In this document: piece after piece, positions 1-19,090 of the stretch
Numbering within the stretch: the stretch's first letter is position 1
Layout: every line of letters starts with the position of its first letter
NCBI RefSeq assembly: GCF_003334355.1
Contig: NZ_QOWP01000006.1
Source: Escherichia coli
Lineage (GTDB): Bacteria; Pseudomonadota; Gammaproteobacteria; Enterobacterales; Enterobacteriaceae
Strand: one strand, 5' to 3'
Length of the DNA: 64,000 bases
Position numbers and translations under genes: made by a program
The notes under the pieces: model-generated
Seen by the model: only the letters and a program-made list of their open reading frames with translations
What the model was told of the DNA's origin: nothing
Database searches by the model: none

Positions 1-153
1 CCAGCGCATTGGCGGCCCGGCGTGAAGCAGTGTTTTGCCCTCGTTTAGTTCGCTGATAAGTGAAGAAGCCGGTTGCACATCCAGCCAGTGTGGACGAGCG
101 CGACGAATTTGTTCGATAACCGCAGCATTGGCTTGCGCTACTGATGTAAACAT
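1..153 (-). CDS. ylbE: YlbE (DUF1116) N-terminal fragment; gene continues past the window start
   Basis: Minus-strand ATG at 151-153, open to the window edge; translation MFTSVAQANAAVIEQIRRARPHWLDVQPASSL... matches recalled YlbE N-terminus; sits directly downstream of fdrA as in K-12. Confidence 0.6.
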   Translation of the reverse strand, partial: MFTSVAQANAAVIEQIRRARPHWLDVQPASSLISELNEGKTLLHAGPPMRW

Positions 154-162
154 GGGAACCCC

Positions 163-1830
163 TTATTGCAAACGTTCTAATAAACGAGCCAGTTTTTTAT
201 TGCCGCCGGCGACTGGCGACCATTGGTAATGCACAACCGGTTTGCTGGCGCTTTGTAGCTCCAGCGCAAAGCTGCGTAATCCGATGTTAATCACGGCGAC
301 GTTTTCCAGTAATGACGGTGTGTGTTGCTGAGTGGCAGGCGAAAGCGGACGAATCAGTGCCGCCGCCAGCAAGGTGGCTTCCGGCAGCGAACTCACTACC
401 GCGATCCCTGCATCTTCCAGCGTGGCGATTTGCTGCGAGCGGCATTGCGGGTCACGTTCAGTGCCTGTCACCGTGGCAATGGCATACAGTGGTTGATTGT
501 CTGAAAGCGCGGCACATGCTTTTTGCCAGGCGCTTACCAGCGAGGCGGCAGGATCGGCGGTCGCACCGAAGCCAATCACGACATCAAGCAGCAATACGCG
601 CACTTGCGGTTTAGCGCCGAGATCGGCAATTAACTGGTTGCGTAAGGCTGGGTCGATCATCGGATGGGGACGCCCGACGGTGTAGAAATCATCGCCGAGG
701 TCAATAATCTGGTGACCATCAGCGTCGAGCATCATGCCGTGATGATGGGTATCGTCGGCTTCCACGCCAAGGTGTCCAGCAAGTAATCCCGCCGCTTCGG
801 CAGCCAGCGTACCGCCGGTATACAAACCGCAAATAAATCCGCTGCTGACAGGCGCTATTGCGTTACGTCGCGCCGTGACACGTGAAAGCAGGCAAGCCAG
901 GCGTGCGGCCTCATCCAGCGAGGAGGCAAACCAGACATTCTCGTCGCGGGCCACCGCCGGGGTATAACCTAAAAACAGCGCCACCGTCGGTTTGCCGGTT
1001 GCTTTCATGGCATTAACAATTTTCAGACGCACAGCTTCGGCAGGCGGTTTTGAAACAAATGCCAGCACTTCGCTTTTCTCGTCTGCACTGAGCATTTCCA
1101 GCGCCGTCAGCGCACTGATGCCGCCTACTTCACGGCTGAGGTCGCGCCCGCCAAGGCCAATCGCGTGAGTAATTCCCTCCCCTGCCAGCGCAATCTGCGA
1201 GCACAGCTCCTGAATCCCGGTACCGGAAGCGCCAATGACGCCAATGTTGCCTTCCGGCATCACGTTAGCAAAAGCCAGCGGCGTGCCGGCAATCATCGAC
1301 GTACCGCAGTCCGGCCCCATCACCAGCAAGCCTTTTTCTCGCGCGCGGGTTTTAAGTTGGATTTCATCTTCCAGCGTGACGTTATCGGAGAACATCATCA
1401 CGTTGAGGTTGCGATCCAGCGCCTGATTCGCCAGCTCCGCCGCATACTCGCCAGCCACTGAAATCAGCGCCAGACTGGCATCGGGTAATTTCTGACAGGC
1501 GCTGTCCCAGCGACGCACCTGCGTCAACGCCTGGCTGCTGCCTGACCCCTGCGCCAGTTGTTTTAGCGCCTCTTCAAGCTGCTGCATAATCGCCTGCGCG
1601 ATCCCCGCATCCGCCGCTTCGCTACGAATTGCCACGCAAATATCGTTCGGCGTGGCGTTATTAAAATCGTCATGCCAGAAACCTGTGGTATCTAATAACG
1701 CTTTATTGGCGGGCGTACCCATCATTACGGAAACATCATCAACATTTTCTGATTCGCTGAGTTTTCGTGAAATAATCATTAAACTGACCGAATCCTGAAA
1801 ACACCCTTTTTTAATAAAGGCGTGGATCAT
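163..1830 (-). CDS. fdrA: FdrA, acyl-CoA synthetase-like protein (555 aa)
   Basis: 555-aa ORF of K-12 FdrA length; position next to allD; CoA-ligase-like glycine-rich motifs. Confidence 0.9.
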   Translation of the reverse strand: MIHAFIKKGCFQDSVSLMIISRKLSESENVDDVSVMMGTPANKALLDTTGFWHDDFNNATPNDICVAIRSEAADAGIAQAIMQQLEEALKQLAQGSGSSQALTQVRRWDSACQKLPDASLALISVAGEYAAELANQALDRNLNVMMFSDNVTLEDEIQLKTRAREKGLLVMGPDCGTSMIAGTPLAFANVMPEGNIGVIGASGTGIQELCSQIALAGEGITHAIGLGGRDLSREVGGISALTALEMLSADEKSEVLAFVSKPPAEAVRLKIVNAMKATGKPTVALFLGYTPAVARDENVWFASSLDEAARLACLLSRVTARRNAIAPVSSGFICGLYTGGTLAAEAAGLLAGHLGVEADDTHHHGMMLDADGHQIIDLGDDFYTVGRPHPMIDPALRNQLIADLGAKPQVRVLLLDVVIGFGATADPAASLVSAWQKACAALSDNQPLYAIATVTGTERDPQCRSQQIATLEDAGIAVVSSLPEATLLAAALIRPLSPATQQHTPSLLENVAVINIGLRSFALELQSASKPVVHYQWSPVAGGNKKLARLLERLQ

Positions 1831-2067
1831 AACAACTCCTTAAAAATTGCACCCATGGCAATTGCACGAGCAGTGTTAATGTGGCGATTACGGTATCGAT
1901 GACAACGGGTAAATAAGGTGATGAATATCACACAGGGATTATTAACAAAAGAATTCAAATAACCGCCATGCTATTACGTGTTATTTTTTAATAAGCGTGG
2001 TTGTTTTAAAAACCAGGTTAAAAGCGAGCGGATTATCAAATAAATTCTAACTATATTTTTTTGCCTG

Positions 2068-2087
2068 TCTGGATCACATAATCCAGA
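2068..2087. promoter_or_regulatory. Perfect inverted repeat TCTGGAT-N6-ATCCAGA about 60 bp upstream of allD; candidate activator (AllS?) site
   Basis: 7-bp arms with 6-bp spacer read directly in the fdrA-allD divergent intergenic region; the assignment to a regulator is inference. Confidence 0.3.
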
Positions 2088-2146
2088 TATTTTCCCTGTA
2101 TGTTAATTGCAGTCATGCTTCACACCGTCGTTAAAAAGGAAGACAG

Positions 2147-3196
2147 ATGAAAATCAGTCGGGAAACACTCCACCAGCTAATTGAGAATAAACTCTGCCAG
2201 GCTGGGTTAAAACGTGAGCACGCTGCAACCGTGGCTGAAGTATTGGTTTACGCCGATGCCAGAGGGATCCACTCTCATGGCGCGGTGCGCGTGGAATACT
2301 ACGCGGAACGCATTTCAAAAGGCGGCACCAACCGCGAACCGGAGTTTCGTCTTGAGGAAACCGGGCCGTGCTCGGCAATTTTACATGCCGACAATGCCGC
2401 CGGACAGGTCGCGGCGAAAATGGGTATGGAACATGCCATCAAAACCGCCCAGCAAAATGGCGTTGCGGTGGTCGGTATCAGCCGGATGGGTCACAGCGGC
2501 GCAATCTCTTATTTTGTGCAGCAGGCAGCCCGCGCCGGATTCATTGGCATTTCGATGTGCCAGTCCGATCCAATGGTGGTGCCGTTTGGCGGCGCGGAAA
2601 TTTACTACGGTACTAACCCCCTGGCCTTTGCCGCGCCGGGAGAAGGCGACGAGATCCTTACCTTTGATATGGCGACTACCGTACAGGCATGGGGAAAAGT
2701 GCTCGACGCCCGCTCGCGTAATATGTCTATCCCGGATACCTGGGCGGTCGATAAAAACGGTGTACCAACAACCGATCCGTTCGCGGTACATGCTCTGCTC
2801 CCCGCCGCCGGGCCAAAAGGGTATGGCCTGATGATGATGATTGACGTCCTCTCAGGCGTCTTACTCGGCTTACCGTTCGGGCGACAGGTTAGTTCGATGT
2901 ATGACGATTTACACGCAGGGCGTAATTTGGGGCAATTACATATAGTTATTAATCCGAACTTTTTCTCCTCCAGCGAATTATTCCGTCAACATCTTAGCCA
3001 GACCATGCGCGAATTAAATGCCATTACCCCCGCGCCCGGTTTTAACCAAGTTTATTATCCCGGACAGGATCAGGATATTAAACAACGCAAAGCCGCCGTC
3101 GAAGGCATCGAAATTGTTGATGATATTTACCAGTATTTAATTTCCGACGCGCTTTATAACACGTCATACGAAACGAAAAATCCCTTTGCGCAATAA
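2147..3196 (+). CDS. allD: Ureidoglycolate dehydrogenase AllD (349 aa)
   Basis: 349-aa ORF, N-terminus MKISRETLHQLIENKLCQAGL...; first gene of allDC-allE operon. Confidence 0.9.
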   Translation: MKISRETLHQLIENKLCQAGLKREHAATVAEVLVYADARGIHSHGAVRVEYYAERISKGGTNREPEFRLEETGPCSAILHADNAAGQVAAKMGMEHAIKTAQQNGVAVVGISRMGHSGAISYFVQQAARAGFIGISMCQSDPMVVPFGGAEIYYGTNPLAFAAPGEGDEILTFDMATTVQAWGKVLDARSRNMSIPDTWAVDKNGVPTTDPFAVHALLPAAGPKGYGLMMMIDVLSGVLLGLPFGRQVSSMYDDLHAGRNLGQLHIVINPNFFSSSELFRQHLSQTMRELNAITPAPGFNQVYYPGQDQDIKQRKAAVEGIEIVDDIYQYLISDALYNTSYETKNPFAQ

Positions 3197-3217
3197 TTAT
3201 TGAGACAGGACTTTCTT

Positions 3218-4453
3218 ATGATTACACATTTTCGTCAAGCCATAGAAGAAGCGCTGCCCTAGCTTTCCTCATTTGGCGCTGACCCAACGGGTGGGATGAC
3301 CCGTTTACTTTATTCGCCGGAATGGCTGGAAACCCAGCAGCAATTTAAAAAAAGAATGGCAGCAAGCGGGCTGGAAACACGTTTCGATGAAGTGGGGAAT
3401 TTATACGGTCGCCTGAGTGGCACCGAATATCCACAGGAAGTGGTTCTGAGCGGTTCGCATATCGATACCGTGGTTAACGGCGGTAACCTCGACGGGCAAT
3501 TCGGCGCGCTGGCGGCGTGGCTGGCAATTGACTGGTTGAAAACGCAATACGGCGCGCCGCTACGTACGGTCGAAGTGGTGGCGATGGCAGAAGAAGAAGG
3601 CAGCCGCTTCCCGTATGTCTTCTGGGGCAGTAAAAATATCTTTGGGCTGGCGAATCCTGACGACGTGCGGAATATCTGTGATGCCAAAGGAAATAGTTTT
3701 GTCGATGCGATGAAGGCTTGCGGATTTACTCTGCCGGACGCCCCGCTAACTCCGCGTCAGGATATTAAAGCCTTTGTCGAACTGCATATCGAACAGGGCT
3801 GTGTGCTGGAAAGTAATGGGCAATCAATTGGCGTGGTGAATGCAATTGTCGGGCAACGTCGCTATACGGTGACGCTGAACGGCGAATCAAACCATGCAGG
3901 CACCACGCCGATGGGTTATCGTCGTGATACGGTTTACGCTTTCAGTCGCATTTGCCATCAGTCGATCGAAAAAGCGAAAAAGATGGGCGACCCGCTGGTT
4001 CTGACCTTTGGGAAAGTAGAGCCGCGCCCGAATACGGTGAATGTGGTGCCGGGTAAAACCACGTTCACCATTGATTGTCGTCATACCGACGCCGCCGTGC
4101 TGCGTGATTTCACCCAACAGTTAGAAAACGACATGCGGGCGATTTGCGATGAAATGGACATTGGTATTGATATCGATTTATGGATGGACGAAGAACCCGT
4201 GCCGATGAATAAGGACCTGGTCGCCACCCTGACAGAATTGTGTGAAAGTGAAAAACTGAATTACCGGGTGATGCACAGTGGTGCCGGGCACGACGCGCAA
4301 ATTTTCGCGCCTCGCGTGCCGACCTGCATGATTTTCATTCCCAGCATCAACGGGATCAGCCATAACCCGGCGGAACGCACCAATATTACCGACCTTGCCG
4401 AAGGGGTCAAAACGTTGGCACTCATGCTTTATCAACTTGCCTGGCAGAAATAA
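3218..4453 (+). pseudogene. allC: Allantoate amidohydrolase AllC interrupted by an in-frame amber codon at codon 15 (TAG 3260-3262); the uninterrupted reading frame resumes at ATG 3296 and gives 385 aa
   Basis: ATG 3218 with AGGA 7 nt upstream encodes MITHFRQAIEEALP then TAG; the same frame continues through ATG 3296 to the stop at 4451-4453; 3218-4453 is 412 codons, matching 411-aa K-12 AllC, which by recollection has Trp at this codon. Confidence 0.55.
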
Positions 4454-4463
4454 GGAGTCATAA

Positions 4464-5249
4464 ATGGGATATTTAAATAACGTCACCGGTTACCGCGATG
4501 ATTTACTGGCTAACCGTGCGATTGTGAAACACGGTAATTTCGCACTGTTAACCCCGGACGGTCTGGTAAAAAATATTATTCCGGGCTTTGAAAATTGTGA
4601 CGCGACAATCCTCTCCACGCCAAAGCTGGGTGCCTCTTTTGTTGATTATCTGGTCACACTGCATCAAAACGGCGGCAACCAACAGGGCTTCGGTGGCGAA
4701 GGCATTGAAACGTTCCTGTATGTGATCACTGGAAATATCACTGCCAAAGCCGAAGGCAAAACATTTGCCTTAAGCGAAGGTGGCTATCTTTATTGCCCGC
4801 CAGGCTCCTTAATGACGTTTGTTAACGCCCAGGCCGAAGACAGCCAAATCTTTTTATATAAGCGCCGCTATGTTCCGGTAGAAGGCCATGCACCGTGGCT
4901 GGTTTCTGGCAATGCCAGCGAACTGGAACGCATTCACTATGAAGGTATGGATGATGTGATCCTGCTGGATTTTCTGCCCAAAGAGTTAGGTTTTGATATG
5001 AACATGCATATCCTCTCTTTTGCACCAGGTGCCAGCCATGGTTATATCGAAACACATGTTCAGGAACACGGTGCCTATATTCTTTCCGGTCAGGGGGTTT
5101 ATAACCTCGACAATAACTGGATCCCGGTGAAAAAAGGCGATTACATCTTTATGGGCGCTTATTCTTTACAGGCTGGTTATGGTGTAGGGCGTGGTGAAGC
5201 GTTCAGCTATATTTACTCGAAAGATTGCAACCGCGACGTAGAGATTTAA
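4464..5249 (+). CDS. allE: (S)-ureidoglycine aminohydrolase AllE/YlbA (261 aa, cupin)
   Basis: 261-aa ORF directly after allC; matches recalled YlbA. Confidence 0.85.
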   Translation: MGYLNNVTGYRDDLLANRAIVKHGNFALLTPDGLVKNIIPGFENCDATILSTPKLGASFVDYLVTLHQNGGNQQGFGGEGIETFLYVITGNITAKAEGKTFALSEGGYLYCPPGSLMTFVNAQAEDSQIFLYKRRYVPVEGHAPWLVSGNASELERIHYEGMDDVILLDFLPKELGFDMNMHILSFAPGASHGYIETHVQEHGAYILSGQGVYNLDNNWIPVKKGDYIFMGAYSLQAGYGVGRGEAFSYIYSKDCNRDVEI

Positions 5250-5291
5250 GTCATACCACTCGCCTGATTATTTTTAGCTATGTTGGATTTT

Positions 5292-5318
5292 GCCACGGTT
5301 TATACCGTGGCTTTTTTT
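5292..5318 (+). terminator. Rho-independent terminator of allDCE operon
   Basis: GCCACGGT-TTAT-ACCGTGGC hairpin followed by TTTTTTT. Confidence 0.7.
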
Positions 5319-5326
5319 GTAACATT

Positions 5327-5431
5327 GCCTGATGCGCTTCGCTTATCAGGCCTACATGATCTCTGCAATATATAGAATTTGCGCGATTTTCAGGAAGGAT
5401 ATAGTACTCATGCCGCATCCGGCATGAGTAC
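5327..5431. repeat. REP element plus a 12-bp-arm perfect palindrome between allE and glxK
   Basis: GCCTGATGCGCTTCGCTTATCAGGCCTAC REP-like unit; AGTACTCATGCC-GCATCC-GGCATGAGTACT palindrome at 5402-5431. Confidence 0.6.
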
Positions 5432-5476
5432 TGCGCTCTTATACGAAATAAATAGCATCCGCTTTAAAGGCAAGAG

Positions 5477-6622
5477 TCAGTTTTTAATTCCCTGACCTAT
5501 TTTAATGGCGCAGGCAATATTTCGCGCGCTGTTGAAGAGATTGATTTCACCGCTGGCGAGTACTTCGGCTAAAGGTGCCAGACGTGGCAAAATGCTGAAT
5601 ACCGCATCAATGCCATACTGGTGCACCACTTCCACGCCATCACCCAATACGCCAGCAATCCCAATCACCGGTACATTAAACTGCTTCGCCACCGACGCCA
5701 CACCCAGCGGCGCTTTACCGCCTGCCGTTTGCGAGTCGATGCGCCCTTCCCCGGTAATCACCAGTGCTGCGCCCTGCACTGCCTGCGCAAGATTGACCGC
5801 ATTCAACACAATCTCAATACCTGGTTTAATATCCGCATTGAGAAATACCGCCGCCGCAATACCCATACCGCCCGCAGCGCCGCCGCCCGCCATCTGGCAG
5901 ACGTTGATTTCAGTTTGCTGTTGTAAAACACGGGCGTAATTTTGCAGCCCCTGTTCCAGCTCTTCGACCATTTCCGGCGTTGCCCCTTTTTGCGGGCCAA
6001 ACACCGCCGCCGCGCCGCGTGCCCCTACCAGCGGGTTATCAACGTCACATGCTACTTCAATATGGCAATTCGCCAGACGCGGATCGCATTCATCCATCTC
6101 AATGCTTGCCACGCGCGCTAAATTACCGCCGTTAGCCACCAGCACCTGACCGTCGGCATCAAGGAAACGCACACCGAGCGCCTGCGCCATGCCCATACCG
6201 CCGTCGACCGTCGCACTGCCGCCAATGCCGAGAATAATATGGCGAATGCCGTTATCCAGCGCATGACGAATTAACTCCCCCGTACCAAAACTGGAGGCCA
6301 GCAACGGATTACGCTTTTCAGGCGCGACCAGCATCAGGCCACTTGCTGCCGCCATCTCAATCACCGCCGTTTTCCCGTCGCCGGTAAGGCCATAAAAAGC
6401 ATTCACTGTTTCGCCCATCGGCCCGCAGACTTCAAGCGTCACGATGTTGCCGCCCGTCGCGGCGACCATCGCATCCACCGTTCCTTCGCCGCCATCCGCT
6501 ATCGGCAAACAGATATAGTGCGCATCGGGAAAGAGGGTCGAAAACCCGGCTTTAATTGCCTGGCAACATTTTTCTGCACTTAAGCTCTCTTTAAAAGAGT
6601 CTGGCGCAATGACAATCTTCAT
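5477..6622 (-). CDS. glxK: Glycerate 2-kinase GlxK (381 aa)
   Basis: [30 protein letters not shown]...; start trimmed to the Met that gives K-12 length. Confidence 0.9.
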
Positions 6623-6643
6623 TATCAATCCTTTTTCAACAAA

Positions 6644-7945
6644 TTATTCGATGCGTTCCCACGGAATAAGATTATCCATAAGAACAGCCAGTAAAATCCC
6701 GACCAATAAGCCGTTACTGAGCAGAGGACGCAGCGTTAATGGAAGGTCTTGCAGATACACAGGCGGTAATGCCATTAAAAATATGCCGACAAATAACGGC
6801 AATGCGAGTCGATAAATATTGCGAGCGGTAAAGGTTATTTGCTGGCTAAACACCAGCGCGGAAAAGAGTAAAGGCAGATAAGAAACCAGCATGACCGCGC
6901 TACTCACGGGTAAAGGGATACTGCAAAACAGTCGTGTGAGTGCCGGAACCAGCGCCACCAGCAGGCAAATAACGCTGCCATAAATAAACGAACGCCGCGT
7001 GTAATCGCCAGTCTGGGTTAATAAACCAATGGATGAAACAAACGGTGAAAATGGAATTACCGCCAGCGGTACGGTTATCAGCGTCATAAATCCGGTCGCC
7101 ACAAAGCTACGACGATAACGCGTATTCCCCGCGCCCTGCTGCGGATAAAAAACATCCGTGCCCCGAATCGCACCGTAGGTATTGCTGATATTCACCAGAC
7201 CTGTAATCACCGCCGTCAGAATAATTCCCGGCGACAAAGCACCGCCACTGCCGAGCGGGAACCACTGCCAGTGCAACTCACCGGAGAGCGAATGCGAAGA
7301 AGGAAAGCAAAAGTACCACAACAACCAGCCGGTTATCGTACCGACCAGCAGGCCATAACGGGCAAAACGTTGCGGCAGAAAGATAATCATCGCCAGTACC
7401 AGGCACATCACCGCCACCGAGAGCGCGAACGGTGGTAACTGAATTTTAAAATTTGGGTCGGCTATGCCAAACGGCAGCCCGAGCATACCTTTGAAAAAGA
7501 TAGTGGTCAGCTGCGCGCCCAGCATCAACATAAACAAGACCATCACCGACGGCGTAAATAACCGTGCCAGGCGATGGCCTAATCCGCTAAAACCAATCAA
7601 CATCGTCAGCACGCCGGAGAGTGCAATCCCCACCGCCAGACTGGTAGCGATATCGTTGATCGGTGTCCCGCGCGATGCTTCGCCAAGGGTGATAGTAAGG
7701 ATGGTTCCCCACCACAGGCCACCCGGCCCTTCCATAATAGCGCGACGATGACCGCAGAACGCCTGAGCGAAGCAGGCCAGTGCGGTAGCAAGAAAAGCAT
7801 ATTGCGTGAGCGTAAGCAGGCTACTTTGCGGCAACTGAAAAGCAGAAAGTAGCGTAGGAGGAACCACAACCGTGTTGCAAAAAATAAAGAAAAACCACTG
7901 AAATCCTGATAACAGGCTTTCGCGGCTGACTGCAAAATTGAACAT
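6644..7945 (-). CDS. ybbY: Putative purine/allantoin-pathway permease YbbY (433 aa)
   Basis: Polytopic membrane ORF; ATG at 7943-7945 with AAGGTG 5 nt upstream (the track ORF starts at a GTG 2 codons earlier). Confidence 0.85.
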   Translation of the reverse strand: MFNFAVSRESLLSGFQWFFFIFCNTVVVPPTLLSAFQLPQSSLLTLTQYAFLATALACFAQAFCGHRRAIMEGPGGLWWGTILTITLGEASRGTPINDIATSLAVGIALSGVLTMLIGFSGLGHRLARLFTPSVMVLFMLMLGAQLTTIFFKGMLGLPFGIADPNFKIQLPPFALSVAVMCLVLAMIIFLPQRFARYGLLVGTITGWLLWYFCFPSSHSLSGELHWQWFPLGSGGALSPGIILTAVITGLVNISNTYGAIRGTDVFYPQQGAGNTRYRRSFVATGFMTLITVPLAVIPFSPFVSSIGLLTQTGDYTRRSFIYGSVICLLVALVPALTRLFCSIPLPVSSAVMLVSYLPLLFSALVFSQQITFTARNIYRLALPLFVGIFLMALPPVYLQDLPLTLRPLLSNGLLVGILLAVLMDNLIPWERIE

Positions 7946-8001
7946 AAACACACCTTAACCGGAGAATGCCCGCCGCAAGGACGGGCATTGCAGGGGCCAG
8001 A

Positions 8002-9363
8002 TTACTGCTGATGTTTAAGGATAAATTGACCTTTCGGCGCAACAGGGAAGCCCTGTTCAATGTCGTAAATCACATCACCACGTAAGATGGTTTTCGTGAT
8101 ACGCGCGCCAATGGTACGGCCAACATACGGGCTGACTTTGTGGCGATATTCCAGATCGTCATTGGTAAGAACATAGCTGCTATTCGGCTGAATGAAGACG
8201 AAGTCGGCATCTTTTCCTGGGGCGATACGGCCTTTTTGCTGCAGACCGAAAATATCTGCTGCGTTAGTCGCCATTAATTTGCCGAACATTGGCAGAGACA
8301 TTCCGCGTTTCTGTACCGCTTCATCGAACATCACGTCCATACAGTTTTGCAGACCGGCAATACCGCCCCATGCTTCCATGATGTTGCCGGCTTTCATTTC
8401 CGGAGGGCATGGTGAGTGGTCGGAAACCAGGCAGTCGATTTCACCGTTAAACAGTTTTTCCCACATGCCTTTCTGGTTTTCCAGATCGCGGATCGGCGGT
8501 GAACACTTCGCCAGAGTACCGATTTCTTCGAACTGATCGGTATCCAGTACAAAGTAATGCGGGCAGAATTCACAAGTAACATCCTGACCTTCCTGACGTG
8601 CACGAATCACTTCTTCAACACCTTCTGGGCTGCTGATATGGCAAATGTGCAGACGGCAACCGGCAACTTTCGCCAGGTACAGTACGCGGCGAATCGCTTC
8701 CATTTCGGTAAATACCGGACGCGAAGCCACATAGTCATGGGCAGTTACACGACCTTCACTTTTCGCTTCTTCGCCCAGTGCATCACAGATCAGCGCGTTT
8801 TCGCAGTGCACCAGCACCGGCTGCCCCAGTTCGCCCAGCTTCTGCGCACCTTTGAAGAACTGCCAGTCGTTTACATCACGGAAGTCGTTGTCGATACCGC
8901 GATCGCCACAGGTCGCAACGAAGCATTTGAAGCCGACAACGCCCACTTCATCCAACTCATGCAGACGATCAATGTTGTAAGACACCAGGCCACCGAGTTG
9001 TGCCGCATCGATAGTCAGCTTGCCTTTAGCGGCATCGAACTTCAGTTCAATTGAAGCACGGTCAACCGTTGCAGGCAGCTGGTTGAGCGGCATTTCGATC
9101 ATGGTGGTGATACCACCTTTTGCCGCTGCGCGAGTACCGGTTTCATAACCTTCCCAGTGGCTACGACCCGGTTCAGAAATATGGGTGTGCGCATCAACCA
9201 TGCCCGGCGAAACCACCAGACCAGACGCATCCATAACTTCTTTTGCATCGCCCAGATCCTGACCGATAGCAGCAATTTTTCCGCCTTTAACGGCGATATC
9301 TACAACGCGAGCTTCGTTTTCTAAAATAACGGTGCCGTTTTTAATGATTAAATCAAAAGACAT
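8002..9363 (-). CDS. allB: Allantoinase AllB (453 aa)
   Basis: 453-aa amidohydrolase-family ORF with DAHTH metal motif; position in all cluster. Confidence 0.92.
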
Positions 9364-9422
9364 AACAAACTCCTTGTAAAATACAGATTGGTTTTTAACT
9401 CAATGTTCAATATCGGGATTAA

Positions 9423-10877
9423 TTAACCTATGGTTTTTTGCTCTCCTGTTTTTTCTGCTGTTGTACGTTTCTTTAATAAGGCGTAGGCCGCAAAGGCGAC
9501 GATGACGCCGACAAACCATGAAACACGCGATAACGGTTCCATAAAGTGAATAAACTTACCGCCAAGAGATAAAATAACGGCCACCAGAGTTACTGAAAAC
9601 GCAGTGAGGTTAAAACCGTTATCGTAATATTTATAATCGCCAGGTGCGGTATACAGTTCATCAAGATTAATTTGTCCGCGCATCACCACAAAATAATGCG
9701 CCATCATGACACCAATTACCGGACCAAGCATTCCGCCGATAATATCGAGGAAAAGATAAATGCTGTCCTGATTTTCCATTAATTTCCACGGGCAGATCAG
9801 CAAGCTGATAATACTGGCAATCAGTACGCCGTTTTTATAGGTCAGTTTTGTCGGTGCAATGGCGGCAATCTGATAACCGGCTGGAATAATATTACCGGTC
9901 GCGTTAGTGGAGATAGTTGTCATCAGAATAACCAGTACCGCAAAGAACGAGGCGAACAGGCTGTCCCAACGCTGAACAATATCCAGCACGTTCCAGGTAT
10001 CAGCGCCGTAGTGAATACTGACTCCGGCAATAATACATACCCCGGCGACCGCAAACAGAATATAGGCCACAACTAAACCCAGCGTTTGCCCCAGCGCCTG
10101 CTCACGAAACGAGTGGGCGTTTTGCGTAAAGTCGGATGCGCTCACCGCCGGTGCCGCCCAGACCGCAACTACCGCGTTAATCACCACCAGGAACAGGAAG
10201 CCACCGTTTTCTGCTTTCTGAATACCGCTCGGAATGTAGTCAAAGATTGGACCGATCCCGACCAGTGAAATCGCCCAAATCGCCATACCGCCGAAAACGA
10301 TATAGATGCACGGGTTAAGAATGGCAGTGAATTTATTTAAAACTTTGCCACCGCCAAAACCTATACCAACGTTGACCAGCCAGAAGATTAAGAAAGTAAT
10401 TAAGCCCGGTAGAGAAAGGCCTAACAGAGTGAAATCACCACCGAGAGTTAAAAATCCCGGCCAGATTTTGCCAATCAGAATCAAGCAGGCCAGTGACCCC
10501 GCGTAACATTGCAAACCAAACCACATGATGGCGGCAATTCCGCCCCTTAATAATCCGGGAAACAGTGCACCACGTACACCGTAAGAAGCACGCAGGATCA
10601 TGGCAAAAGGCACACCGTATTTACTGCCCGCAGCACCGTTTAATACCATTACCGCGGCAATGAAAAAGGCGCTGAGGATAATTGCCAGCATAATACTAAA
10701 GGTAGACAAGCCGAGAATAAAAAAGCCGCCGACCATCACATAATTGGGAACGTTATGAACCGAACCCATCCATAAGGTAAAATAGTTAAATGTTTTCCAG
10801 GTCCGCTGGCTTTGCGTTTTCGGCAATAGATCTTCGCTATAGCCGCGTTGCTGGAATAGTTTTCTCTGATGTTCCAT
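9423..10877 (-). CDS. ybbW: Allantoin permease YbbW/AllW (484 aa, NCS1 family)
   Basis: 484-aa multi-TM ORF between glxR and allB. Confidence 0.9.
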   Translation of the reverse strand: MEHQRKLFQQRGYSEDLLPKTQSQRTWKTFNYFTLWMGSVHNVPNYVMVGGFFILGLSTFSIMLAIILSAFFIAAVMVLNGAAGSKYGVPFAMILRASYGVRGALFPGLLRGGIAAIMWFGLQCYAGSLACLILIGKIWPGFLTLGGDFTLLGLSLPGLITFLIFWLVNVGIGFGGGKVLNKFTAILNPCIYIVFGGMAIWAISLVGIGPIFDYIPSGIQKAENGGFLFLVVINAVVAVWAAPAVSASDFTQNAHSFREQALGQTLGLVVAYILFAVAGVCIIAGVSIHYGADTWNVLDIVQRWDSLFASFFAVLVILMTTISTNATGNIIPAGYQIAAIAPTKLTYKNGVLIASIISLLICPWKLMENQDSIYLFLDIIGGMLGPVIGVMMAHYFVVMRGQINLDELYTAPGDYKYYDNGFNLTAFSVTLVAVILSLGGKFIHFMEPLSRVSWFVGVIVAFAAYALLKKRTTAEKTGEQKTIG

Positions 10878-11014
10878 AAATCCCTCTTAATTTCACGTAT
10901 CGAATAACGTTGTTTTAATCTAGCTATGAGGAACAAATAAAATAAAAATATTATTTTTAATACTGAAGCAACATCTTTGGCTGCTTTCTTTTTTAATATT
11001 GCTGGCCGATTCAT
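10736..11014 (-). CDS. ybbV: YbbV-like hypothetical 92-aa ORF overlapping the ybbW 5' end; probably not a real gene
   Basis: 92-aa ORF of the size and position recalled for K-12 b0510; heavy overlap with ybbW and no convincing SD. Confidence 0.2.
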   Translation of the reverse strand: MNRPAILKKKAAKDVASVLKIIFLFYLFLIARLKQRYSIREIKRDLWNIRENYSSNAAIAKIYCRKRKASGPGKHLTILPYGWVRFITFPIM

Positions 11015-11045
11015 TTTCTGATATCGGCCATTTTTATTGCGGGTA

Positions 11046-11924
11046 TCAGGCCAGTTTATGGTTAGCCATTAATTCCAGCGCCTGCACTAACGCAGAGTGA
11101 TCCAACTGGCTGCCACCGTTTGCCGCACAGGTATTAAATAACTCCTGGCAGGTCGCAGTGTTTGGCAGGTTCAGCGCAAGTGCTTTCGCACTTTGCAGTG
11201 CCAGGTTGAGATCTTTCTGGTGCAGAGCGATTTTGAAGCCCGGATTAAAGGTGCGTTTAATCATACGCTCGCCATGAACTTCCAGAATACGTGAGGAAGC
11301 AAAGCCGCCCATCAGCGCCTGGCGCACACGTACCGGGTCCGCACCGGCTTTTGAAGCAAATAGCAGGGCTTCAGAAACCGCTTCAATATTGAGCGCCACG
11401 ATAATCTGATTTGCCACTTTGCAGGTTTGACCATCGCCGTTACCGCCCACGAGGGTGATATTTTTACCGAGCAGTTCAAACAGCGGTTTAACACGTTCAA
11501 ATACCGCTTCATCACCGCCAACCATAATCGACAACGTCCCTTCACGCGCACCGATTTCACCGCCGGAGACTGGCGCATCGAGATAATCGCCGCCCAGTTC
11601 ATTCACCTGACGAGCGAAACGCTTAGTTTCAATCGGGGAAATGGAGCTCATATCAACAATGGTTTTGCCCTTCAGCGAGGCTTTGGTACAACCATTTTCA
11701 CCGAACAGAACTTCTTCAACCTGAGGTGTGTCCGGCACCATAATAAAAATGATGTCCGATGCTTCCGTTACCTGGCGAGCAGTTTCAACACTGACGGCAC
11801 CCAGTGACAGTAATTCATCAGCAACCGGTCCAATGGTCGTGACATGTAATTGATGACCGGCACGCGCCAGATTAATGGCCATCGGTGTACCCATAATGCC
11901 TAAGCCAATAAATCCCAGTTTCAT
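11046..11924 (-). CDS. glxR: Tartronate semialdehyde reductase GlxR (292 aa)
   Basis: N-terminal Rossmann motif MKLGFIGLGIMGTPMA; 292 aa. Confidence 0.92.
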   Translation of the reverse strand: MKLGFIGLGIMGTPMAINLARAGHQLHVTTIGPVADELLSLGAVSVETARQVTEASDIIFIMVPDTPQVEEVLFGENGCTKASLKGKTIVDMSSISPIETKRFARQVNELGGDYLDAPVSGGEIGAREGTLSIMVGGDEAVFERVKPLFELLGKNITLVGGNGDGQTCKVANQIIVALNIEAVSEALLFASKAGADPVRVRQALMGGFASSRILEVHGERMIKRTFNPGFKIALHQKDLNLALQSAKALALNLPNTATCQELFNTCAANGGSQLDHSALVQALELMANHKLA

Positions 11925-12023
11925 AATTAACCTCTTTTAAATTTCGCTTTTCCTGAATTCAGACAACACGATCCCCTGCCAACTTAGCGGCCTAAAAAAG
12001 CATTGTCTGAATAGCGTTACGTT

Positions 12024-12800
12024 TTAACGGTACGGATCCATCCAGCGTAAACCGGCTTCCGTGGTGGTTTGGGGTTTATATTCACACCCAACCCAACCGT
12101 TGTAGTCAGAATTTTCGATTACCTTAAAGAGATAATCATAATTAATTTCTCCGGTTCCCGGTTCGCCGCGATGCGGATTATCGGCAATTTGCAGGTGACC
12201 AATTTTATCAGCCCACTGAGTCATGGTGTTGGTTAATTCACCTTCCATCCGCTGCATGTGATAAATGTCATACTGAATTTTCAAATTGCAGCAACCAACA
12301 TCATCAATCAATTTCAGCGCCTGCCGAGTTCCGGTGAGATGGAAACCAGGAATATCAAAATGGTTAATAGGTTCAATCAGTAATAAAATATCTTCTTTCA
12401 TCAGCATATTCGCGGCATAACGCAGGTTTTCTACAAGCGTTGCGTGAATCTGTTCACTGCTGAAACCAGCCGGCGTTTTACCGACCAGACAGTTAATTTT
12501 TTTATTACCCAGCGCACGGGCATAACGAATCGCTGCTGCTACGCCATCCCGAAACTCTTCTTCACGGCCAGGAATACAGGCAATACCGCGCTCCCCCGCC
12601 GCCCAGTCACCCGCCGGTAAATTGTGCAGCGTATGTTCGAGTTTATTACTCGCCAGCACATGTTTTAATTCTTCAATGTCGTAGTCATAAGGAAACATAA
12701 ATTCAACGCCGCGAAAACCACACTGCGCAGCTTTCTCAAAACGGGCGAGAAAATCATATTCTCCAAATAACATCGATAAATTAGCAGAGAAACGTAACAT
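12024..12800 (-). CDS. hyi: Hydroxypyruvate isomerase Hyi (258 aa)
   Basis: 258-aa TIM-barrel isomerase-like ORF between gcl and glxR. Confidence 0.9.
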   Translation of the reverse strand: MLRFSANLSMLFGEYDFLARFEKAAQCGFRGVEFMFPYDYDIEELKHVLASNKLEHTLHNLPAGDWAAGERGIACIPGREEEFRDGVAAAIRYARALGNKKINCLVGKTPAGFSSEQIHATLVENLRYAANMLMKEDILLLIEPINHFDIPGFHLTGTRQALKLIDDVGCCNLKIQYDIYHMQRMEGELTNTMTQWADKIGHLQIADNPHRGEPGTGEINYDYLFKVIENSDYNGWVGCEYKPQTTTEAGLRWMDPYR

Positions 12801-12812
12801 TATTTATCTCCC

Positions 12813-14594
12813 TTATTCATAGTGCATGAAGCAGGTTTCAGTCGGTGCGTCCGCTGCGTTATCGGCGATATCTTCAAATTCCATGACGTTATCCAGTTCG
12901 CTGCCCATCGAAATATTGGTCACACGCTCGAGAATAACTTCCACGACTACCGGTACCCGATATTGCGCCATTAAGGCTTTCGCCTGTTCAAAGGCTGGCG
13001 CAATATCTTCCGGTTTGAAGACCCGAATAGCTTTACAACCTAAACCTTCCGCTACTTTTACGTGGTCAACACCGTAGCCATTCACTTCACTGGAGTTGAT
13101 ATTCTCGAAAGCGAGTTGCACGCAGTAGTCCATGTCAAAAGCGCGTTGTGACTGACGAATCAGGCCGAGATAGGCGTTATTCACCAGCACATGGATGTAC
13201 GGAATGTTGAACTGCGCGCCAACGGCTAACTCTTCAATCAGGAACTGGAAGTCAAAGTCGCCAGAAATCGCCACCACATTGCGTTTCGGATCAGCGGCAC
13301 AAACCCCCAGCGCCGCCGGAATCGTCCAGCCTAACGGACCAGCCTGACCACAGTTGATCCAGTGGCGGTCTTTAAAGACATGCAGCATTTGTGCCGCAGC
13401 GATTTGTGACAAACCAATGGTGGTGACATAGCAAACATCGCGACCAAAGGCTTTGTTCATCTCTTCATACACGCGCTGCGGTTTCACCGGCACGTTGTCG
13501 AAATGGGTTTTGCGCAGCAAAGTGCGTTTGCGCTGCTGGCAGTCGGCGACCCATTCTTTACGACACGGCAGACGACCCGCTTTTTGCATCTCCTGCGCCA
13601 CTTCAACCAGCAGTGTCAGCGCCGCTTTAGCATCAGAGACAATGCCGAGATCCGGACACAGCACGCGACCAATTTGCGTCGGCTCAATATCGATATGAAC
13701 GATTTTGCGCCCTTCGGTGTATTTCTCTACCGAACCGGTATGACGGTTAGCAAAACGGTTACCGATACCAAACACCATGTCGGACGCCAGCAACGTTGCG
13801 TTACCGTAACGATGCGCGGTTTGCAGACCCACCATCCCGGCCATCAGTTCATGATCGTCCGGGATACAGCCCCAGCCCATCAGCGTTGGGATCACCGGAA
13901 CGCTGGTCAGTTCAGCAAACTGTTGTAACAGTGCAGCTGCGTCAGCATTAATTACCCCGCCCCCGGCAACAATCACCGGACGTTCGGCCTGGATTAACAT
14001 TTCTACAGCTTTTTCGATCTGCATACGGCTGGCAGCAGGTTTGTAGACCGGCAGCGGTTCGTACATGTCAGGATCAAACTCGATTTCCGCAACCTGAACG
14101 TCGAACGGTAAATCCACCAGTACCGGACCCGGACGACCAGAACGCATCAGGTGAAATGCCTGTTGCAGCACGCGAGGCACCAGCGCCGCTTCACGAACTG
14201 TAACCGCCATTTTGCTGACCGGTTTAGCAATTGCTTCAATATCTACGGCCTGAAAATCTTCTTTATGCAGACGGGCGCGCGGTGCCTGGCCGGTAATGCA
14301 CAGAATAGGAATGGAATCAGCAGAAGCGGAATAGAGCGCGGTGATCATGTCCGTGCCCGCAGGACCGGAAGTCCCCAGACATACGCCGATATTTCCTGCC
14401 GTTGCGCGGGTATAACCTTCCGCCATGTGCGAAGCACCTTCCACATGACGCGCCAGAATGTGACGAATACCGCCGTGCTTACGCATCGCTGAGTAGAACG
14501 GATTGATTGCAGCTCCCGGAACACCGAAGGCGGTGGTGATACCTTCTTTCTCCAGCACATACATTGCCGCGTCAACGACTCTCATTTTTGCCAT
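12813..14594 (-). CDS. gcl: Glyoxylate carboligase Gcl (593 aa, ThDP enzyme)
   Basis: ORF contains [19 protein letters not shown]...; start placed at the Met that gives 593 aa. Confidence 0.92.
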
Positions 14595-14614
14595 TTTATT
14601 CCTACCTCTATTTA

Positions 14615-14631
14615 TTGGAAAATTTTTCCAA
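14615..14631. promoter_or_regulatory. AllR operator in gcl promoter (TTGGAAAATTTTTCCAA palindrome)
   Basis: Perfect TTGGAA-N5-TTCCAA dyad directly upstream of gcl; a near-identical dyad recurs in the allA-allS intergenic region. Confidence 0.7.
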
Positions 14632-14683
14632 CTTTCAAATTTTGTCAAAAAAACCCGCTCCGCAGAGCGGGATGCGACAGACA

Positions 14684-15499
14684 TTATGGATGTGCTTTCA
14701 GTCCCAACGCCGTGCTGATATCGCGGGCGGTGTCTCTGACCAGCTCACCCTGACTGACAAAACGATCTTCTGTCAGTCTTGATGAAGGCCCGGAGATGGA
14801 GATAGCGGCAACAACACTACCGACATCATCGTAAATTGCTGAAGCTATGCAATTCAGACCTACAACATGCTCTTCTTTATCTACGGTATAGCCCAGTTCA
14901 CGCGCTTGTTCCAGGTCCTTCAGCAAGGTGGGCATATCCACAAGCGTAGTTGGCGTAAACTGCTGCAAACCGGTTTGCAGAATGATGCTCATCAACTCCT
15001 CTTCCGCCAGCGGATAAAGCAGCGCTTTGCCCGCACCGGAAGCATGCAGTGGCAGACGACTGCCCAGTGGCGCACACATCCTGACCATCGATTTACACTC
15101 TAACTGACCAATTAATACCGCTTCATTGCCGTTACGGATCGCGACATTGACCGTTTCGCCGGAAAGTAACATCAGGCGGCGCATAAACGGCCCGGCGACG
15201 GAGAGGACATCGCGGTTATGGATGTACGCCGCACCGACGTTAAAGACACCTAATCCTATATGCCACCAGCCTAATTGACTGTCCTGATAGACAAAATCCG
15301 CTGCCTGTAAAACCTTCAGCAAGCGAAAGGTCGTGGAGAGCGGCAAATCCAGATTGAGAGAAATATCGCTAACCGACGAACTTCCCCCACTTTTTTCCAA
15401 ATATTGCAGAATCGCAATTCCCCGCTCTAACGCCTGTGCGCCCTTCTGTGCCACAGGCTCCGCCTGTCCTGGCCTGCCGCGCCGTCTAACTTCCGTCAT
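14684..15499 (-). CDS. allR: IclR-family allantoin repressor AllR (271 aa)
   Basis: 271-aa ORF with N-terminal HTH and IclR effector domain; between allA and gcl. Confidence 0.92.
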
Positions 15500-15576
15500 A
15501 CCTACGTTAACTCCGACCTACAAGTGAGCATAAACAATGAACAATTAGTTTATCTTATGCAAGTCGGTTGCAGGCG

Positions 15577-16059
15577 TCACGCAAAACAGAGTTCCTGTTC
15601 AGGAATACTTTCAACATCACAGTTGTCACTGCCGCCGCGATCGATGGTCAGAAAATCGGTGACGCGCTGCCAGGCGAAAAGTGGGTGATGCCAGACGTTA
15701 CGATGGTAATTCACTCCCTGTTCGCCGTTGGTGATAAACGCCCGCAGCGTTGACAGGTCTGGTTTGTCGTCACCTAACGCCACGACCACCACAAACACCT
15801 CACCTTTCATCGGGATAAAGGCCTGAGTACCCAGCGGATGACGTTCGAGTTCGTGAATGGTCAGCGGCAGATTCGCCGGTTGCGCGCGGTTAATGCTGAT
15901 AAGCGTACGGTCTTGCTCAAGAATCTCAACCAGCGCCAAATCGTGGTAACGCTCCACCAGGCCATTGTTAATATGGAAAAAATCCCGTTGCTGCGTTTCG
16001 ATTACGTCGCCATAAGCACTAAAGGCTTCCTGACTTAACGGTAATACCTGAAGTTTCAT
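15577..16059 (-). CDS. allA: Ureidoglycolate lyase AllA (160 aa)
   Basis: 160-aa [24 protein letters not shown]... Confidence 0.9.
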
Positions 16060-16164
16060 CTTTTTGTCCTTGTAACATAATTCCGTTCAACCACCGCCGA
16101 CCGGTCAGCTTGGTTTCAATAACAGGCAATCTAAAACCTTAAGAGAACAACATCAATACAAAAG

Positions 16165-16181
16165 TTGGAATATTTTTCCAA
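16165..16181. promoter_or_regulatory. AllR operator in the allA-allS divergent region (TTGGAATATTTTTCCAA)
   Basis: Same dyad as in the gcl promoter. Confidence 0.7.
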
Positions 16182-16288
16182 AACTAGATTTAGTCCACAA
16201 ATTGAACAGGGTTATCATGTAAAAATACTGATAAATCAGAGGATAAGAAAATCACGCAACTTGCGGATTTAAAAGGGGATACCTGAAG

Positions 16289-17215
16289 ATGTTCGATCCA
16301 GAAACCTTGCGGACTTTCATTGCGGTTGCTGAAACAGGAAGTTTTTCAAAAGCGGCAGAACGATTATGTAAAACCACGGCGACGATCAGTTATCGCATTA
16401 AACTTCTGGAAGAGAATACCGGAGTAGCGCTGTTTTTCCGTACGACTCGCAGCGTGACGTTGACAGCGGCTGGCGAGCATCTACTTTCCCAGGCCAGAGA
16501 CTGGCTGAGCTGGCTGGAAAGTATGCCAAGCGAGCTGCAACAGGTGAATGATGGCGTGGAACGCCAGGTGAATATTGTCATCAACAACCTGCTCTACAAC
16601 CCCCAGGCCGTCGCCCAGTTGCTGGCGTGGCTGAATGAGCGTTACCCCTTTACCCAGTTTCACATCTCCCGACAAATCTATATGGGCGTCTGGGACTCGA
16701 TATTGTACGAAGGTTTTTCGCTGGCTATCGGCGTCACGGGAACTGAGGCGCTGGCAAATACCTTTAGTCTTGATCCCTTAGGATCGGTGCAATGGCGCTT
16801 TGTCATGGCGGCGGATCATCCGCTGGCGAACGTTGAAGAGCCGCTAACAGAAGCGCAGTTGCGGCGCTTTCCGGCGGTCAATATTGAAGACAGCGCCCGC
16901 ACCTTAACCAAACGCGTCGCCTGGCGATTGCCAGGGCAAAAAGAGATTATTGTTCCCGATATGGAAACGAAAATCGCCGCCCATCTGGCGGGCGTTGGCA
17001 TTGGTTTTTTGCCAAAATCGCTTTGCCAGTCAATGATCGATAATCAACAACTGGTCAGCCGGGTAATCCCAACGATGCGCCCTCCTTCGCCATTGAGTCT
17101 GGCATGGCGCAAATTTGGCAGCGGCAAAGCGGTAGAAGATATTGTGACCTTGTTTACCCAGCGCAGGCCGGAAATCAGCGGATTTTTAGAAATTTTCGGC
17201 AACCCACGCAGTTAA
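16289..17215 (+). CDS. allS: LysR-type activator AllS (308 aa)
   Basis: 308-aa LTTR with N-terminal HTH; divergent from allA. Confidence 0.9.
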
Positions 17216-17268
17216 AAATCAAGTTTCCTTGCGCGTTGGCGCGTAAAATAGCGCGCAAGCTGATTTGA

Positions 17269-18378
<1,110 letters not shown>

Positions 18379-18441
18379 TGGGCGGTATTCTGAAACGGCG
18401 ATTGTCGTGAGAACAGAATGGTTGCACCAGAATACAGATAT

Positions 18442-18478
18442 AAAAAAACCGACATGACAGTCGGTTTTTTTATTTTTT
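18442..18478. terminator. Bidirectional rho-independent terminator (selU on +; candidate sRNA on -)
   Basis: AAAAAAA-ACCGAC-ATGACA-GTCGGT-TTTTTTTATTTTTT; A-tract before and T-tract after the hairpin. Confidence 0.75.
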
Positions 18479-18530
18479 CCGCCCAAGACTTGGTGGTTCC
18501 GGGCAGAAATGAAACAGTCCTCATCTAGCA
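18442..18530 (-). ncRNA. Candidate antitoxin sRNA (~88 nt); its 5' end is antisense to a 16-nt element that recurs in the toxin leader
   Basis: Minus-strand promoter (-35 TTGAAT, 17-bp spacer, -10 TATAAT) puts the start near 18529-18533; transcript begins with the reverse complement of CAGTCCTCATCTAGCA (18515-18530) and ends at the bidirectional terminator. Confidence 0.4.
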
Positions 18531-18535
18531 AGTGA

Positions 18536-18564
18536 ATTATAAGTCAGGATGCCTACATATTCAA
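18536..18564 (-). promoter_or_regulatory. Predicted sigma-70 promoter of the candidate sRNA
   Basis: Minus-strand -35 TTGAAT (18559-18564), 17-bp spacer, perfect -10 TATAAT (18536-18541). Confidence 0.45.
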
Positions 18565-18680
18565 ACAGCTATGTTGGCGATACAATCCCGACGCTAGTAG
18601 TGATACTGCCTCAAGGGATTACCGCAGTGCGGAAAAGTACTTTTAAGTCCTGGTCAGGATACAGGTGGTGCTGATTCTGG

Positions 18681-18689
18681 TGCTCTAAT
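18681..18689 (+). promoter_or_regulatory. Predicted extended -10 promoter (TGcTCTAAT) for the toxin mRNA
   Basis: TGn + TCTAAT on the plus strand; predicted start near 18696, just 5' of the second 16-nt copy (18701-18716). Confidence 0.3.
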
Positions 18690-18789
18690 TTGGAGAGAGG
18701 CAGTCCTCATCTAGCACATGAAGAAAATCATAGTTACAGGCAACGTAAGGGTAAGCTGTGATTGTCTTTCTCCCTTAAGGGAGCAACGG

Positions 18790-18873
18790 ATGAAAACTTT
18801 TCTCGATAAAGTTCTCATCGTTCTTAAGGCGCTAATCGCGCTGCTGGAACTGATCCGTCAGTTTATTGAATAA
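18790..18873 (+). CDS. Candidate type I toxin: 27-aa hydrophobic peptide MKTFLDKVLIVLKALIALLELIRQFIE (DinQ-like)
   Basis: ATG 18790 with AAGGGAG SD 6 nt upstream; SD lies in a CTCCC/GGGAG hairpin; single predicted TM helix; own terminator downstream; core ALIALLELIR recalled as shared with DinQ. Confidence 0.5.
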   Translation: MKTFLDKVLIVLKALIALLELIRQFIE

Positions 18874-18893
18874 CTGAGGAAACGTAGCTAAGG

Positions 18894-18920
18894 CCGAAGG
18901 TTTACCACCTTCGGTCTTTA
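18894..18920 (+). terminator. Terminator of the small toxin ORF
   Basis: CCGAAGGT-TTACC-ACCTTCGG hairpin followed by TCTTTA. Confidence 0.6.
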
Positions 18921-18944
18921 AAAAAACCGACATGACAGTTGGTT
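18920..18944. repeat. Second copy of the 25-nt selU-terminator motif (one mismatch)
   Basis: AAAAAAACCGACATGACAGTTGGTT versus AAAAAAACCGACATGACAGTCGGTT at 18442-18466. Confidence 0.7.
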
Positions 18945-18976
18945 TCATATTTATTGCCAAAATGCACACTGTTCAT

Positions 18977-19074
<98 letters not shown>

Positions 19075-19090
19075 AATCTAACACCTGTCA

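Follow-up and report, generated by a model that had tools for sequence, protein, structure and literature searches.

A G-to-A transition at a former Dcm site converts Trp15 of allC into an amber codon and probably makes the gene a pseudogene in an Escherichia coli clone

Analysis of a 64,000-nt stretch of Escherichia coli DNA that includes the allantoin cluster (hereafter, the window) indicates that allC is very probably a genuine pseudogene in this clone, generated by one G:C-to-A:T change at position 3261 that converted Trp15 into an amber codon and that likely arose by deamination of 5-methylcytosine. The features discussed below are listed in Table 1. From position 3218, the plus strand reads ATG ATT ACA CAT TTT CGT CAA GCC ATA GAA GAA GCG CTG CCC TAG; the N-terminal translation is therefore MITHFRQAIEEALP, followed by the amber at 3260 to 3262. 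Downstream of this codon the frame stays open until the normal TAA (4451 to 4453), the TAG being its sole internal stop, and the ORF list gives just a 385-codon ORF from ATG 3296 for the gene. The initial annotation had reported an ATG at 3218 preceded by a Shine-Dalgarno (SD) sequence and followed by TAG at codon 15, which the sequence bears out, and 397 further codons, a figure reached only by counting the terminator, as 396 sense codons follow the TAG. Its placing of a Trp at codon 15 of K-12 AllC was correct: TGG is found at this position in K-12 and in each relative compared, so that the window has an in-frame stop where intact orthologues carry a sense codon. The ancestral protein aligns over the entire length of the AllC equivalog models and also with the solved E. 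coli AllC structures 1Z2L, 2IMO, and 4PXD, whose sequence across this site is ...LPWLSSFG... Gene order also identifies the locus as allC, with allD-allC-allE lying in an allantoin cluster collinear with those of PSS-12 and K-12. The proposal that allC is a pseudogene is thus supported by a derived, private G-to-A change, by PGAP calls of an internal stop for the same codon-15 TAG in two RefSeq genomes, and by the conservation of the 26 N-terminal residues. This nonsense pseudogene is an ordinary event of an already known kind.

Table 1. Coordinates of the features in and around allC (window numbering)
Feature	Position	Strand	Remarks
allC (allantoate amidohydrolase/deiminase), pseudogene	3218..4453	+	411-codon frame, interrupted at codon 15; orthologues at matching coordinates in PSS-12 and K-12 (b0516); assignment also based on NCBIfam NF006768/TIGR03176
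TAG amber replacing Trp15 (TGG)	3260..3262	+	Derived base is A at 3261
Native allC Shine-Dalgarno sequence AGGA	3207..3210	+	7 nt 5′ of ATG 3218; unaltered
Candidate restart, GGGTGGG (3289-3295) abutting ATG (codon 27)	3289..3298	+	Gap of 0-1 nt; predicted hairpin
Residual 385-codon ORF, AllC minus residues 1-26	3296..4453	+	Reported by gene callers for the TAG allele
Former Dcm site, ancestral CCTGG now CCTAG	3258..3262	.	From context scan and recurrence in an unrelated allC allele
allD, first gene of the allD-allC-allE unit	2147..3196	+	Intact, same as in relatives
allE, with its own strong SD sequence AAGGAG	4464..5249	+	Intact; possible polarity from the early stop (predicted)
allB patch: S266F, T253I, V221M, and synonymous R205, within 183 bp	8567..8749	-	Clade specific
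fdrA A370	721	-	Clade-derived synonymous G-to-A change
gcl L395 (synonymous) and A6V	13412..14578	-	Two clade-derived G-to-A changes
allS L138I	16700	+	Clade-derived C-to-A change

Comparison of window positions 3100 to 4500 with 5,426 complete E. coli genomes placed the closest of them a single base away. Over positions 2057 to 5227, which span allD-allC-allE, MLI023K1 differs from the window at 3261 only (G versus A), and the human faecal isolate PSS-12 is collinear with the whole 64-kb window, with 19 SNPs and no indels. Allele polarity was set with 1297KP, FCI56, K-12, MLI023K1, and O121; against these genomes and PSS-12, TGG is the ancestral and TAG the derived state of codon 15. The alignment with other E. 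coli allC genes proposed in the initial annotation accordingly returned TGG in the relatives and a one-base derived difference in the window. The codon-15 TAG is therefore a specific single-base change, not a chance pattern. The amber allele is fixed in a small clone that is close kin of PSS-12.

The mutated base belongs to a Dcm recognition sequence. Opposite position 3261 is the inner cytosine of a minus-strand CCAGG, the position methylated by Dcm, and the change, G to A on the plus strand, is C to T on the strand of that cytosine, as expected of a hotspot event. In E. coli, CCWGG is a hotspot of G:C-to-A:T mutation at the methylated base (PMC13250602). The window holds 176 Dcm sites, Dcm 5-methylcytosine positions making up about 1% of its G:C pairs, and none of the nine other window-derived SNPs falls on one of these positions. 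Single-base changes could create a stop in allC in 125 ways, only two of which are at Dcm positions (W15 and W409, the latter three residues from the C-terminus of AllC); the same two account for 2 of the 31 nonsense routes of the G:C-to-A:T type. In the route that we propose, the 5-methylcytosine opposite 3261 would have deaminated to thymine and escaped very-short-patch repair, changing TGG into TAG. Dcm is assumed to be active in this strain, dcm and vsr lying outside the window. The classical amber hotspots of lacI reportedly lie at Dcm sites and were ascribed by Coulondre and Miller to 5-methylcytosine deamination. Those hotspots and the allC mutation are alike in that a G:C-to-A:T change at the inner cytosine of CCWGG creates a TAG. 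However, the lacI hotspots are CAG-to-TAG changes in CCAGG on the coding strand, whereas in allC the cytosine at the methylated position is on the template strand and the change is TGG to TAG. Elsewhere in the window, codon 197 of pdeB (63689, synonymous) shows an unpolarized C/T difference from PSS-12 at a Dcm 5-methylcytosine position, which would be another CCWGG transition if T is the derived base in PSS-12.

A search for further TAG carriers relied on 40-nt probes in which every 28-nt seed included the A of the TAG. The TAG probe for the window-type allC allele found no carrier among complete E. coli genomes, and the one for the K-12-type allele found two, FDAARGOS_1287 (NZ_CP070071.1) and CH4793 (NZ_CM166350.1), in both of which PGAP annotates an allC pseudogene with an internal stop. 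In these two genomes, of approximately 5.1 Mb, the TAG at codon 15 arises at the same CCTGG by the same TGG-to-TAG change and is the only internal stop of allC, but the allele is a different one, with 34 of 1,236 nt (2.75%) distinguishing it from the window allC. Over 15.1 kb, CH4793 departs from its TGG relatives 13P477T and 2009C-3133 at the TAG base alone; its amber is an isolated change, whereas that of the window clone is accompanied by 11 further derived substitutions in the cluster. The same W15 amber has thus arisen independently on an unrelated allC allele. Two independent origins were all that about 5,400 genomes yielded, so the allele does not often arise through this hotspot. FDAARGOS_1287 additionally carries two same-strand G-to-A changes just upstream of allC (L041 positions 7682 and 8768, in the fdrA-allD intergenic region and allD), which are absent from CH4793 and the TGG relatives.

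Because the other SNPs lie off Dcm positions, few stop routes involve a Dcm site, and the mutation recurred independently, deamination of 5-methylcytosine, with methylation assumed, is the most likely origin of the W15 amber. G:C-to-A:T is nevertheless the commonest spontaneous change (6 of the 7 polarized SNPs derived in the PSS-12 lineage are of this type), so an ordinary replication error could have had the same outcome. An alternative in which the stop is real but stems from such an error, or from a regional burst of mutation, and the Dcm context is coincidental gains from the finding that the clone has 12 derived substitutions in a 20-kb cluster, 10 of them G:C to A:T and all but the amber off Dcm positions, and from the prevalence of the same transition among the recent SNPs of the sister lineage. 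We nonetheless consider coincidence unlikely, given that both independent ambers struck the same one of so few Dcm positions and that the CH4793 amber arose with no other change in 15 kb.

The substitutions that accompany the amber have an uneven distribution of their own. The initial annotation had regarded the rest of the regulon as intact, and this holds for the reading frames, all 54 other annotated CDS of the window being intact, but not for the sequence as a whole, as the cluster has 11 further derived substitutions, 7 of them missense. The comparison was extended 12.8 kb leftwards with the clone's own contig, and changes were polarized against PSS-12, 1297KP, and K-12 over coordinates -9,999 to 64,000. 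Thirteen clone-derived substitutions were found in this interval. Twelve lie between -2739 (ybcF) and 16700 (allS), i.e., exactly within the 20-kb allantoin cluster, and the 54 kb of flanks contain one (45900, synonymous, in htpG); chance alone would place at least 12 of 13 in that 27% of the sequence with a probability of 1.5e-6. By comparison, the SNPs derived in the sister strain, PSS-12, are evenly spread (1 in the cluster and 6 to 8 in the flanks), and a Fisher test of region by lineage gives p = 2e-4 to 1e-3. The changes are R271C in YbcF; T256 (synonymous) and A78T in YlbF; A370 (synonymous) in FdrA; W15* in AllC; S266F, T253I, V221M, and R205 (synonymous) in AllB; L395 (synonymous) and A6V in Gcl; and L138I in AllS. 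Those inside the window are at 721, 3261, 8567, 8606, 8703, 8749, 13412, 14578, and 16700. Neutral G:C-to-A:T mutation in the same genes would give 35% synonymous, 60% missense, and 4% nonsense changes, and the observed numbers (4, 7, and 1, respectively) agree with this. Ten of the 12 are G:C to A:T, 8 of which are G to A on the plus strand, but strand coordination of the transitions (8 G to A versus 2 C to T) was not significant (two-sided binomial p about 0.11). The gcl ORF (12813 to 14684, minus strand) runs 30 codons upstream of the annotated start at 14594 to an in-frame ATG at 14684; this extension is probably a mere open frame, and the A6V change is close to the annotated start.

Several explanations of this excess were considered. 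The whole 12-change haplotype is present in all carriers seen, and a search of 5,341 complete E. coli genomes did not find the four-SNP allB patch, the best match having 4 mismatches. Public contigs with single alleles of the haplotype do not represent intermediates, as the Gcl A6V, AllS L138I, and YbcF R271C backgrounds are unrelated (45 to 289 mismatches); these alleles recur on 18, 21, and 18 unrelated contigs, respectively. Relaxed selection is insufficient as a cause: synonymous changes are enriched too, the excess is approximately 30-fold over the flank rate of the clone, and the recent SNPs of the sister lineage are likewise mostly nonsynonymous. Obvious damage by the missense changes was not apparent either, since the AllB, Gcl, and AllS variants lose just 1 to 6 bits against curated models (approximately 6 bits on the equivalog model for the AllB patch). 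Simple recombinational import does not suffice, in view of the 12 derived changes of the clone versus 1 of PSS-12 on the segment (binomial p=0.0017) and the absence of the allB patch from the complete genomes. What is left is the tentative idea, to which we attach low confidence, of a natural, regionally confined mutation shower that coincided with one catabolic cluster, rather than drift or relaxed selection. Such a shower might have resulted from a damaged long single-stranded intermediate, from break-repair mutagenesis, or from a fragment acquired from a hypermutating donor. The amber and the substitution burst are in any case separable, as the second TAG lineage (CH4793) lacks the burst.

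Translation from the native allC start would end after 14 residues, and the first in-frame start beyond the TAG is ATG 3296 (Met27), 33 nt downstream. Anti-SD pairing is predicted to be stronger at the GGGUGGG in front of this codon (-6.4 kcal/mol) than at the native site (-4.0). A close downstream in-frame start is thus available, but a workable spacing and an accessible ribosome binding site are not: in agreement with the poor reinitiation anticipated in the initial annotation, the SD-like element leaves a gap of only 0 to 1 nt before the ATG and is predicted to sit within a hairpin. Against NF006768 and TIGR03176, the residual ORF of 385 aa reaches 788 bits (cut-off 532) and 736 bits (cut-off 597.75), respectively, and the ancestral AllC 830.9 and 767.6 bits; over the family profiles, the Met27-start form loses 25 to 43 bits. 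By its score of 788 bits, well above the AllC cut-off, the catalytic core of the residual ORF is predicted to be undamaged. The residual ORF nevertheless spans profile positions 27 to 411 and 23 to 406 only, short of a full-length frame, and truncated AllC matches the family profiles only from position 21 to 27 on. The TIGR01879 subfamily profile starts at AllC residue 7, and distant solved homologues align from residues 10 to 13 and share the motif L-S-F-G-x-x-P-x-G-G just before Met27. As the 26 N-terminal residues belong to the conserved family profile, the Met27 start is not a natural isoform. Relatives whose AllC starts at this Met, which would have spoken against a pseudogene, did not come to light, a Met27 start being annotated in none of those examined.

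These features bear on how much AllC the clone may still make. Ribosomes are known to restart after early nonsense codons in lacI and T4 rIIB, and a leaky rather than null allele, in which restart at ATG 3296 yields AllC minus residues 1 to 26 with some activity, would profit from the nearness of the in-frame start, the favourable GGGUGGG pairing, and a product that keeps the whole catalytic core at 788 bits on the AllC equivalog model. We judge this reading quite improbable, because the gap between the SD-like element and the ATG is far off the optimum at a site sequestered in the predicted hairpin, the segment lost is present in every family profile and conserved in distant solved homologues, and none of the relatives has a Met27 start in its annotation. 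Reinitiation at Met27 would provide at most a little AllC without the conserved N-terminal segment. By sequence criteria, the product state of this pseudogene is most likely null or severely hypomorphic, and some AllC activity could persist through reinitiation or through low-level near-cognate readthrough.

Full-length AllC could also be made if an amber suppressor tRNA of the supE or supF type inserted a residue at codon 15. Distant homologues do not conserve Trp15 (the aligned Arabidopsis UAH and 3n5f have Glu instead), so Gln or Tyr would probably be tolerated and the suppressed product would probably work; furthermore, a C after UAG makes for relatively weak termination. Amber suppressors are, however, uncommon outside laboratory strains, the 64-kb window contains no tRNA gene and thus no positive evidence for one, the second, unrelated TAG lineage would need a suppressor of its own, and PGAP handles the allele as a pseudogene, all of which makes suppression very improbable. 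Programmed readthrough or recoding was rejected, as the TAG is derived and rare and orthologues carry TGG instead of a conserved stop. Our search found no useful literature on an E. coli allC pseudogene or on natural amber suppressors.

The amber is reproducible across independent data sets. Identity to the window is 100% for the NCBI assembly GCA_014464935.1 (contig DABRFP010000002.1) over positions 1 to 19363 and for Logan assemblies of ERR4578542 (a contig common to 6 samples) and SRR3823860 over positions 1 to 5353, the TAG included in each case. In the gene table of GCA_014464935.1, allE and allD have no called protein between them, as expected if allC was called a pseudogene; public gene calls do include a 385-residue allC product. 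A third putative carrier, SRR35867423, was discarded as uninformative on codon 15, because its contig (SRR35867423_117153) begins exactly at the Met27 codon. Such a contig edge can yield false carriers of truncation alleles in exact-protein look-ups. The sequencing or assembly error entertained in the initial annotation, to which the one-base difference from all close complete genomes might have pointed, can be dismissed, since the identical TAG haplotype, with 11 other clade-specific SNPs in each carrier seen, recurs in GCA_014464935.1 and in the Logan assemblies of separate runs.

Two other features of the window and its relatives were recorded. The rhsD-ybbC-ylbH-ybbD-ylbG island of K-12 is absent from both the window and PSS-12 at 18379 to 19090, between mnmH/selU and ybbP, where the PSS-12 annotation instead has a small dinQ-like toxin gene (18790 to 18873). 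The ushA gene, intact in the window, has an internal stop in the annotation of the close relative 1297KP (L005 35658 to 37310) and is given there as a pseudogene.

In the established order of the pathway, AllB, AllC, and AllE act before AllA or AllD. AllC therefore acts second, and not last as initially proposed, in the three-step route from allantoin to ureidoglycolate, and its loss is expected to block the conversion of allantoate to ureidoglycine, so that allantoin would give neither nitrogen nor energy. Expression of allE may also fall through polarity, as about 1.2 kb of allC mRNA would be left untranslated. The same operon is disrupted in other E. coli strains with otherwise intact allantoin clusters, there by insertion sequences instead of a point nonsense mutation: ATCC 8739 and relatives have an IS5 inside allC (L040 1619 to 4053), and O121 strain 201805972 has an IS1 inside allD (L002 1271 to 3097). 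In host-restricted Salmonella (ST313 lineage II, Typhi, Paratyphi A, and Gallinarum), allantoin genes such as allB and gcl have become pseudogenes, likewise through lineage-specific point mutations (PMC4372345). These losses concern a different genus and different genes and are part of genome-wide decay, whereas the other 54 CDS of the window clone are intact; host restriction is known for the Salmonella lineages and none is known for this clone.

Taken together, these results indicate that allC should be annotated as a pseudogene in this clone and not as a 385-residue protein, as in the Logan gene calls. From the position of the stop, the clone is predicted to be unable to use allantoin as a nitrogen source. 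The locus also adds, from natural E. coli, a case of an amber hotspot at a Dcm site that has mutated independently on two occasions. Should a genome-wide comparison confirm it, the regional excess of substitutions would represent clustered mutation in a natural isolate and be of greater interest than the amber itself.
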